DNA of 21,150 nucleotides from a virus (lineage: Duplodnaviria > Heunggongvirae > Uroviricota > Caudoviricetes). Each line of letters begins with the position of its first letter. Position 1 is the first letter of the stretch. Position numbers: made by a program. Shown here piece after piece: positions 15,001 through 18,000 of the stretch. The stretch is taken from IMG/VR virus record IMGVR_UViG_2648501392_000022, positions 1 through 21,150 of that record, one strand, 5' to 3'.

Positions 15001-18000
15001 AGTCAACAAAAGAACTGACGAGTTGAGTCCGACGCTCAATCGTCTGTATCGATCTTCTCGCTACTGTTCTCATGCTAGTCTCCTCAACACTTCACTGGCT
15101 GTGCAGTGAAGGTACAAAAAGCCACTGATGATAACAGCGTCATCAGTGGCCCTTGATGGTGATAACCGCAGTTACCTAAATAGTATGATATTACCTTACG
15201 GGTAATTCTTCAACGATTGCTCTGAATTGAATAGTCTTGAAGTGCTATGAACAGCACAAAACAGCGCTAATCACCGCCCCAGTGGCGGCTAAACACTTCA
15301 AAATGTTGGACAGAATCAGGACGTTAGAGGTACTACAATATGCACGTAAAATGCACGTGAGGTATTTTAAATTAGAAAAATCATTAATATTCAATTGGTT
15401 AAGAATTTTTCGGATACGGGTTCAACTCCCGCCAGCTCCACCAATCATGATTGGACGGTATAAGGACAACACCAATAAAAACAGGAAGTTAGCAGTCTCA
15501 GCAGGACACCGACCAGACGGTGAGGAGACATAAAAGAATACGCAAAGGAGCCGCGGCTCCTGGTGACATGAAAGCCCACAGATGTGGGCTTTTTCGTTGA
15601 TGGTCAGAACGACCAGTTCACACCAGCTACCCCGTTCCACGGGGATTCCACACCGGCACCATGGCTATACCCCACCCCAAGATGCCCGCTTAACGTACTG
15701 CTGAATGAGGCTTTAATACCTGCCTGGTATATTCCACGTCTGCCCGACAAATCATTGACGAAATTACCGTCACTATTCACTTTCACCCGGTTATCATCGA
15801 CAAATTCTTTGCGCACAGCCGCCTTCAGCCACGGCTCAACTTCCATACCGTTCCCCAGACGCATGTTGTAACTCAGCGTTGCACCCAGTTCACGATATAA
15901 ACTGCGGGTATCGACTGATTTCGATTCCATGCCATTGGATAAATGATATTCAGGGTTATCAGCGGTGAACCCCCGTTAACGATGCATACGGCGTCAGGTT
16001 CCAGTTACCATCGGTAAATCGCATCCCGGTTTCAATGTGACCGCCCAGCCCGTTGCTGCGATAACTGCCGTTGGCGGCTCCACCGCTGCCAACCGTGGAG
16101 CCGCGAGCTTCGGTACCTGCTAATACCAATAAATTACCGCCATTTTCCAGCAACATATTGGTCGCTAAATTGCCGGAAATGGAAAAAGTGCCGTACTGGT
16201 GAGTACCGCTGATTTCAATACCGTTAGCCGTGCTCGTCTGGAGAGCGGCACCGCTGTTCTGGACGATATCTGTCGCTTTGCCATTATCGTTAACTGTCAG
16301 CGTACCGCCTTCATTGATCTTTGTTTTTATTGCCTCTCCGTTAGCTGAAACTGTTTGTATTCCGCCGTCGTTAATCGTTGTCTCATTCGCCACCCCCTCG
16401 ACGATTTGTTCGCCGCCGGTGAGCGTCGTGCCTGTCGCAGTGGCTTTTGTTTTGACGATCTCCCGTCCGCCCGTATTGACCTGTGTTTTGTCAGAAGAGG
16501 TGTCTGACTCCACGGTTAACACGCCGCCATTTGCCAGCAGGATATTGTTCGCCGCACCCTGCTCGATGCTGAACGCGACGCCATCCGCGCGTGTTCCTGT
16601 GACCCGCGTCGCCCTGGTGGTTGCAACCAAAGCGCCCTGGCTACTCTGCTGTATCCCCGTTGCGCTGCCTTTCTCCCGCACATCGAGTGTGCCGCCGTCA
16701 TTAAGCACCGAGTTTTCAGCCAGACCGCCCTCATTAACTACCTGTGAACCGCCATTAATAATGGAACCTTCCGCTGTCCCGTTTGCCATAATTTGTTGTA
16801 GGCCAGAGACGATATCGGTATTGATCGCCTTACCATAATTCTGAACGGTTTGCGTACCGCCATTGATGTGCGTTTTATCTGTTGACCCACCATCAACAAT
16901 TTGTTCACCACTTTCAATATTTGCCTCAGTGGCTAATCCATATACCGTTTGCTTGCCACCTTTGATATTTGCTTTATCAGAAGTGGCACTGGCATATATT
17001 GTTTGGGTGCCAGCACTATTGAGTACAGTGCCAACATCTTTTCCATAAACATCCATTTTGCCGTTGGCATTAATAATCGTATCAACTGCCCGGGAACCAG
17101 TGACGACTGTTAATGAGCCAGCATTTTCCAGCACTACATTTTTAGCTTCTGAATTCCTGATGTAGAAAGCATCACCATAACTGTTGGTTCCTTAGATAAG
17201 TGTTCCGGAAGTCGTGGAAGCAATTAATGCGCCGCCGGATTGTTGCTCAACATGCTTAGCCTCACCACCGTCCTGAACCTCCAGAACGCCACCATTATTA
17301 AGTCTGGAGCTATCTGTTTTAGCCTCCTTCTGGACAATCAGCTTACCGCCAGCATCAATGGTAGTATTTTTCGCCGAGGTTTTAGCCACTACCGTCAGTT
17401 CGCCGGTATTTTCCAGCACAACATAATTAGCTTCACCTCCGGTAATAGTGAAGTGAGAGAGCTTGTTCATCCTTCGATATCAGTCCCTGCGCCCGTGTTG
17501 GCAACTAAAGCAATGCCCGTCTCCTGGTTAACCCCATGTGCAATACCGCCGGTATAGACAATCAGCGAGCCTCCGGCGCTAATATTGCTGCCAGTTGCCG
17601 TACCATCTTTCTCAACAACCTGCCGGCTCCCGGAGGATATAATTGTCGTGTCAGCTTTCCCGCCGCTCTTGATATTTTGCGTTCCGCCGTTGATATTGGT
17701 ACCCGTGGCAATACCATGATTATTAATATTCTGTGTACCACCATTGATTATGGTATTGGTCGCGTTTCCGGTAACATCCATTACCCCGCCGTTATCTATT
17801 CGGGTCGCATCAGCTTTAGCATTCGTTAAAACTGACATTGTTCCTTTATCTTTAATAATTGTCTTATTTGCCGAACCATATGCGTTTATGTCTAAATGAC
17901 CACCGTTTTCCAGCAACACATTGTCTGCCACGTGATTGTGGATGGAGAATGCACCTTCACTAATCGTACAGCTCACCGTCGTACCGTTAGTGTTTGTTTT

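Follow-up and report, generated by a model that had tools for sequence, protein, structure and literature searches.

A conserved leader with a candidate attenuator precedes a pair of GNAT-like genes carried by enterobacterial prophages

What does the non-coding leader of a two-gene phage cassette do, and does it control the genes behind it? The cassette lies in a stretch of 21,150 nucleotides (nt) from the IMG/VR virus record IMGVR_UViG_2648501392_000022 (Caudoviricetes, positions 1 to 21,150). We refer to this whole stretch as the window and use its numbering throughout. The window represents the left arm of a lambdoid prophage, and the cassette consists of genes A and B, both of unknown function and both read from the minus strand. 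With about even confidence, we read its leader as a promoter-proximal attenuator, which would gate this two-gene moron and yield a leader RNA of ~62 nt, and which would be complemented by operator control at the promoter.

All leader structures were found on the minus strand, 5' of the gene A ATG (15073). The intrinsic terminator (15116..15150), recovered by fold, repeat and terminator searches, has an 11-bp stem, an 8-nt loop and a U5 tract (15120-15116), and is located 42 nt upstream of the ATG. Its stem is perfect (GCCACTGATGA/TCATCAGTGGC, with 15121-15131 pairing with 15140-15150) and its hairpin has a free energy of -17.8 kcal/mol. Between the terminator and the ribosome-binding site, the repeat search detected an 8-bp hairpin, H2 (15090..15111), again with a perfect stem (CTTCACTG/CAGTGAAG, 15090-15097 pairing with 15104-15111). 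The Shine-Dalgarno (SD) sequence of gene A, GAGGAG (15080..15085), was read directly from the sequence, as was the ATG, which it precedes by 6 nt. The preliminary description of this locus had listed a terminator with U tract downstream of the promoter, an 8-bp hairpin ahead of the ribosome-binding site and a palindrome in the promoter spacer, and it was accurate in every detail.

RNA folds added a further hairpin, missing from that description. H1 (15161..15176; GGTAAC-UGCG-GUUAUC, in DNA the palindrome GGTAAC-tgcg-GTTATC) has 6 bp and is placed at the predicted 5' end of the transcript. It is joined to the terminator by a 10-nt linker (ACCAUCAAGG, 15151..15160), single-stranded in both the minimum free energy (MFE) and the centroid structures. 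The 126-nt leader folded with -41.9 kcal/mol (z = -2.8). The predicted terminated RNA of 64 nt (15177-15114) folded with -28 kcal/mol (z = -4.8), and none of 200 shuffles was as stable. H2 alone was not thermodynamically exceptional, its median z being -0.6 across lineages. Rfam searches, of the window at gathering thresholds and of 14950-15460 at E up to 10, gave no leader family, and near the attachment site only an ssrA fragment.

The promoter scan predicted a single sigma-70-like site in 14000-16200, the cassette promoter, with a -35 hexamer TTGAAG (15208..15213) and a -10 hexamer TATCAT (15185..15190). The transcript start at ~15177/15176 is predicted from spacing only. The -35/17-bp/-10 layout was present at a like place in most lineages, the -10 ending 103-116 nt 5' of the ATG. 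Because no sigma-70-like promoter was found conserved between terminator and ATG in the homologous leaders, transcripts of A and B must traverse the terminator. What marks an attenuator, an intrinsic terminator that follows the promoter and precedes the first start codon, with no promoter downstream of it, is what we found here, with promoter and transcript start both predicted.

The 17-bp spacer contains an exact match to the palindrome TTACC-N5-GGTAA (TTACC-ttacg-GGTAA, 15191..15205), a putative operator, from which protein-mediated control had been proposed. Spacer palindromes were found in about half of the lineages, in a positionally conserved promoter, usually as T(T)ACC-N4-5-GGTA(A) and elsewhere as ATAGC-N4-GCTAT or TTATC-N3-GATAA. 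The most distant lineages had a palindrome ACAAC-N4-GTTGT upstream of the -35. This recurrence in about half of the lineages makes control by a protein plausible; as to the protein itself, no DNA-binding protein was identifiable in the cassette.

TTACC-N5-GGTAA gave four matches in the window, against 0.36 expected. Beyond the cassette copy they were at 3618-3632, 4097-4111 and 4763-4777 (one exact, two with one mismatch), around the replication genes, one within a primase-like gene (2927-3895) and two within a helicase-like gene (3897-5555). A perfect palindrome, TTATCGG-AAAG-CCGATAA, was present at ~6597-6616 in the cro/cI intergenic region and is probably the prophage immunity operator. The cassette palindrome was also considered as a CI/Cro operator of the prophage, and this was rejected on comparison with that intergenic palindrome.

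Are these structures kept where the cassette is found elsewhere? The homologous loci and leaders, labelled L001, L042 and so on, provided 40 distinct (non-redundant) leaders from viral, genome and metagenome collections. The non-coding DNA ahead of gene A measured 220-500 nt in every case. A terminator hairpin with a U tract was located 43-52 nt 5' of the ATG in 29 of the 40 leaders, with free energies of -7.7 to -17.8 kcal/mol, and at that position in 13 of 1000 dinucleotide-shuffled leaders (1.3%). Its helix was recovered unaided as the RNAalifold consensus. In a 23-sequence alignment, 87.7% of the H1 and terminator cells were paired (H1 87%, terminator 88%), compared with 24-64% with slid partners. 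The covariation score was 0.319 versus 0.198, none of 500 shuffles scoring as high, and nine pairs had changed on both sides, four in H1 and five in the terminator.

H1 kept the form (G)ATAAC-N4-GTTAT(C) across lineages, with G-U wobbles in several. In the close clade H1, terminator and H2 were 99.5% paired and all stem substitutions kept pairing, among them one from C:G to U:A in the stem of H2, whose loop varied freely. Other lineages had unrelated hairpins in the place of H2, and in the Pantoea and Mixta types the equivalent hairpin takes in the SD, which is GGAGG-like in all lineages. The segment from H1 to the U tract was the best conserved non-coding part, its identity often above that of the gene A DNA (92% vs 83%, 78% vs 69%), and the segments flanking it were at ~50% identity, the background level. 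A covariance model of H1 plus terminator found exactly one copy per locus, always 5' of gene A; the rest of the 330 kb had none. That the leader might serve other cargo was rejected: blastn in distant mode gave matches only together with A and B, and the covariance model agreed.

The structures are present, accompany the genes from locus to locus and are kept through compensating changes, the terminator and H1 alike. The preliminary description had tied its proposal to such conservation in related elements. Since the hairpins and the palindrome are conserved there, attenuation, or a short terminated RNA of ~65 nt ahead of the protein genes, is well founded as a proposal.

In the mechanism we propose, transcription would start at ~15177 from a sigma-70 promoter whose spacer contains a palindromic operator, and the first ~62 nt would fold into the 5'-terminal H1 and the Rho-independent terminator. 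Most polymerases would halt at the terminator and release a short stable leader RNA. Only those that read through would go on, past H2 and the ribosome-binding site, to transcribe the GNAT-like genes A and B. The DNA operator would add a second layer of control, and in the clade of the window H1 might act as an anti-antiterminator, giving a possible switch. What we infer from the leader's sequence and predicted folds is the transcript start, termination itself, the extent of read-through and the switch together with its signal.

For the switch, we found that in the window all of H1 can pair with the loop and the inner 5' arm of the terminator (UAAC/GUUA, GCG/CGC, UUAUCA/UGAUGA), which reflects an imperfect 13-nt direct repeat in two copies spaced 31 nt apart. 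Because of this complementarity, an antiterminator-like hairpin can form before the terminator 3' arm. This alternative hairpin of 13-14 bp was the MFE structure of the nascent RNA before the 3' arm is made, in the window, L042 and Leclercia-type clades. The energies of the alternative duplex were better than those of shuffles (p = 0.004-0.1), and the alternative pairing held in 92.9% of the cells in the close clade. The H1 and terminator loops differ across lineages yet are complementary (UGCG/CGCA, CUUGG/CUAAG, ACUGU/ACAGU), with a permutation p of ~0.016, without phylogenetic correction. The pairing is no more than suggestive; it would give an anti-antiterminator/antiterminator/terminator switch in the clade of the window. 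The repeat could instead represent two copies of a DNA operator, three helical turns apart.

Two further candidates were tried in the leader and rejected. A 19-codon open reading frame (ORF; MTLLSSVAFCTFTAQPVKC, 15133 to 15083, minus strand), the only one in the leader, has its AUG in the terminator 5' arm, is preceded by AAGGG, and its UGA stop overlaps the SD of gene A. It was rejected as a leader peptide, its frame and sequence not being conserved. Counterparts were found in the L042 clade (with a GUG start) and in some Leclercia-type leaders, where the peptides are unrelated to that of the window because the frame differs relative to the U tract; in L020 the ORF is fused to gene A, and in the Yersinia, Pantoea and Mixta types it is absent. 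Kissing of the terminator and H2 loops (GCUGU/ACAGC in the window, with one compensating change in L043) was not kept in L042, L045 and L041.

Several observations weigh against the attenuator. The terminator was missing or degenerate in 11 of the 40 leaders (Buttiauxella-type, L049, L082, L084, L086 and L062-65), and hence is not indispensable. The most distant group has kept the palindromes and has no terminator. In the L079 and L081 types the H1 half-sites are the same as those of the spacer palindrome; for this reason, and given the palindrome upstream of the -35 in the most distant lineages, the H1 signal may in part be that of a DNA operator and not of an RNA hairpin. As for the switch, the alternative pairing showed no covariation in the close clade, was absent in the Pantoea, Mixta and L058 types and weak in the Yersinia types, and the lineages carrying it are related to one another. 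No sensing element was identified, be it a leader peptide, an aptamer or a known protein-binding motif, though a protein-binding site may be present.

Some of these points lead to a rival that we regard as possible, if unlikely: the terminator would be a constitutive, unregulated dampener, which limits the output of a strong promoter and with it the level of an acyltransferase that may be harmful, with all regulation at the DNA level. Some repressor would bind the spacer palindrome, H1 at +1 and a further palindrome within the terminator stem, and the alternative RNA pairing would be a by-product of the repeated operator half-sites. Such a repressor would account for the recurrence of spacer palindromes of a type that varies by lineage, for the half-sites common to H1 and the spacer palindrome in the L079/L081 types and for the palindromes without any terminator in L062-65. 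The H1-like repeat in the terminator, 31 bp or ~three helical turns from H1, and the lineage restriction of the alternative pairing point the same way. However, RNA pairing explains the G-U wobbles in H1 better than operator symmetry does, and the same holds for the loops of H1 and the terminator, which co-vary as reverse complements. No DNA-binding domain could be recognised in A or B, and the cI/cro operator of the prophage (TTATCGG-N4-CCGATAA) is unlike the cassette palindrome.

The high conservation between H1 and the U tract, above the flanks and often above the gene A DNA, could also mean that the function lies in the ~62-nt RNA itself, made of a 5' hairpin, a 10-nt linker and a terminator. 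As a small RNA of the cassette, it would, e.g., act on the GNAT-like proteins as partner or antidote, or regulate their mRNA, and the terminator would set its 3' end and the RNA-to-mRNA ratio, as in type III toxin-antitoxin systems but without repeats. We consider this unlikely. In its favour, the predicted RNA is shaped like the stable small RNAs typical of enterobacteria, Hfq-bound RNAs of an unusually short 51-60 nt are known from prophages (PMC4104026), and the Arg-rich N-terminus of gene A would suit nucleic-acid binding. On the other hand, the linker, conserved within the window, L042 and Leclercia-type clades, is different elsewhere and thus not conserved between the major lineages. The RNA lacks tandem repeats, Rfam gave no match to it at E up to 10, and some lineages lack the terminator altogether. 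No positionally consistent complementary site for the short RNA was found in the A-B mRNA; the heptamer CUGAUGA, which recurred where gene B encodes the conserved ADEY, was rejected as a target, being probably a coincidence.

A more elaborate form of the same idea is a new type of three-component RNA-protein system, which we rate as rather improbable. The non-repeated, single-copy ~62-nt RNA would be bound by the Arg-rich N-terminus of A or by an A-B complex, and would either neutralise a GNAT-type toxin or feed back on the terminator via the H1 switch. If true, the cassette would be a prophage-borne module for abortive infection or exclusion, and a self-sensing one.

Least probable by far is that the hairpins arose by chance or were left over from an adjacent transcription unit, and do nothing for the cassette: H2 alone is no more stable than shuffles, but the position of the hairpins is conserved and their changes compensate in contexts sharing only the cassette, a separate bidirectional terminator (15572-15595) already insulates the attachment side, and from the sequence comparisons a chance origin is essentially excluded.

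What would the attenuator control? Gene A (14732..15073, minus strand) encodes 113 amino acids (aa) and belongs to phrog_2594; gene B (13953..14720, minus strand) encodes 255 aa and belongs to phrog_3307. Both PHROG families are of unknown function. Searches of A and B against Pfam, NCBIfam and PADLOC gave no match, and no relatives by sequence were found in the PDB. Their predicted folds resemble GNAT acyltransferases, in part only for A. The AlphaFold2 (AF2) model of B had a pLDDT of 75.7. The B family is tiny: a set of 1.8 billion proteins gave 51 clusters at 50% identity, and in the same set the weakest B profile matches carried Pfam Acetyltransf_1 (GNAT) over the same core region. B is a candidate for a divergent GNAT fold. 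Gene A is modelled as GNAT-like itself and not as a ribbon-helix-helix protein. The operon layout is that of a small upstream gene followed by a GNAT-fold downstream gene, with palindromes at the promoter. A terminator in the leader is not known from modules of this layout, to whose families A and B show no similarity in sequence. A toxin-like GNAT role for A and B, or a role in modification or exclusion, is a guess.

The Arg-rich N-terminus of A was predicted with low confidence and is invariant in the homologues. RefSeq gives gene A as 81 aa from an internal start (L001, E. coli E110019, NZ_CP035751.1, 9833-10078). The invariant N-terminus and the GAGGAG 6 nt upstream support the start at 15073, correcting the annotation from 81 to 113 aa. 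In the PhiR12 phages gene B was split over two ORFs and recovered as two tblastn pieces (L002, PhiR12_5, PV340554.1, 6054-6820). Apparently, gene B is frameshifted in these induced phages, with leader and gene A intact. We found no relevant paper on phage PhiR12 in the literature.

With respect to its genomic setting, the window contains a helicase, a primase, the cro/cI region, early-left genes and the integrase gene int (12733-13911). The cassette is located between int and the prophage attachment (att) site, convergent with int. It is closed by a strong bidirectional terminator (AAAAAGACCCGGCATTTGCCGGGTTTTTT, 13917..13943), within the 41-nt gap between the convergent stops of gene B and int. 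The att site is marked by an ssrA/tmRNA 3' fragment (GGGTTCAACTCCCGCCAGCTCCACCA, ~15410-15445, plus strand), and ARAGORN found no complete tmRNA in the window. Just inside the att site there is a tandem 11-nt repeat (AATATGCACGT/AAAATGCACGT, 15337-15358), possibly integrase arm-type sites. Beyond the ssrA fragment we recognized remnants of the host autotransporter gene ypjA. The bidirectional terminator-like hairpin at 15572-15595 (AAAGCCCACAGATGTGGGCTTTTT), between the att site and the ypjA remnant, would insulate the prophage end from host transcription.

The same arrangement was found at 99% identity in phages PhiR12_1 to PhiR12_5, and the cassette was present in only 10 of 5426 complete E. 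coli genomes. Among the closest clades, those with >=83% identity in A, it was also placed between a related integrase gene and an ssrA att site. In prophages of Yersinia, Pantoea, Mixta and others it was located within tail-gene clusters and co-oriented with them: after the major tail protein, before the tape-measure chaperones, or between the tail and baseplate genes of myoviruses. A and B were together at every locus not truncated at gene A, and the leader was present in both settings. The cassette has the features of a phage moron, with its own promoter, a bidirectional terminator at its 3' end, and a presence and position that vary among phages.

In L024-L034 (Yersinia, Pantoea, Mixta), a variable third small gene (119-218 aa, mostly without a Pfam match) followed A-B, ahead of the tape-measure chaperone or tape-measure genes. 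L033 had instead an Arc/Bro-N/KilA-N-ANT antirepressor cluster downstream of A-B. The insertion site in the tail cluster looks like a hotspot for several morons. Elsewhere in the window, Rfam matches at gathering score were found for AgvB, an anti-GcvB prophage small RNA (676-737, plus strand, 96.5 bits), and for STnc100 (738-928, minus strand, 144.7 bits). The two are adjacent and convergent, as is typical for a moron site of lambdoid prophages.

What emerges is a cis-regulatory RNA element that is conserved, unannotated and not contained in Rfam, and with it two uncharacterised phage proteins that are GNAT-like. As one unit, the cassette moves between the int-att junction and the tail clusters of enterobacterial prophages, positions that often hold exclusion, defence or virulence genes. 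The leader offers an experimental handle, as mutants of the terminator or H1 should unlock the expression and the phenotype of the cargo. If the short RNA does partner the proteins, RNA-based control of toxin-like enzymes would extend beyond the repeat-based type III systems.

How does the cassette compare with known systems? Rho-independent attenuators are found in 5' leaders, with PyrR-type logic competing between anti-antiterminator, antiterminator and terminator, and a genome-wide survey of premature terminators has reportedly been published. Like them, the cassette has a terminator behind the promoter and ahead of the first start codon and would give a short leader RNA that ends there. 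In the clade of the window there is also a possible three-way competition between H1, the hairpin of H1 with the terminator 5' arm, and the terminator. In contrast to such attenuators, the cassette has no identified sensor, its alternative pairing is not present in all lineages, and it is a mobile phage moron and not a metabolic operon.

The PR'-qut-tR' unit of phage lambda, which gives the 6S RNA of ~194 nt, has a strong promoter, a protein-binding element from -35 to -10 and a nearby terminator that is read through by antitermination. The cassette likewise has an element between -35 and -10 and a terminator shortly downstream, and would yield a short RNA unless read-through occurs. It differs in the length of the RNA (~62 nt, not ~194 nt), in having no Q-like gene with it and in having no identified pause element. 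A dedicated phage antiterminator is unlikely, because the cassette moves between unrelated phages.

Type III toxin-antitoxin systems are defined by tandem direct nucleotide repeats that act as the antitoxic RNA, upstream of a terminator (PMC3401426). The loose likeness to them raised in the preliminary description did not hold for two of the three published traits, the repeats and the ToxN-type toxin. Tandem Repeats Finder (minimum score 30) detected no tandem repeats in 14900-15460, and a separate repeat search gave only the imperfect 13-nt two-copy repeat. A ToxN/CptN/TenpN-type endoribonuclease was rejected on the lack of Pfam, PADLOC and NCBIfam matches and on the GNAT-like predicted folds. 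The third trait, a short palindromic terminator between the RNA and the protein gene, was found (15116-15150). As in ToxIN, CptIN and TenpIN, the order is promoter, non-coding RNA, terminator and protein gene(s), the amount of short RNA relative to mRNA would depend on the terminator, and both are carried on mobile elements. Unlike these, the cassette has no tandem repeats, its proteins are GNAT-like, and it has two protein genes instead of one.

The Hfq-binding RNAs of E. coli prophages, of the AgvB/AsxR class, measure 51-60 nt (PMC4104026). The predicted cassette RNA resembles them in size, in its location at moron positions of lambdoid prophages, and in its terminator hairpin with a U tail. 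It differs in having no sequence or Rfam similarity to them and no conserved seed, and in being a sense RNA that runs straight into protein genes. The architecture, a terminator in the 5' leader, is already known, and the element is a further example of it.

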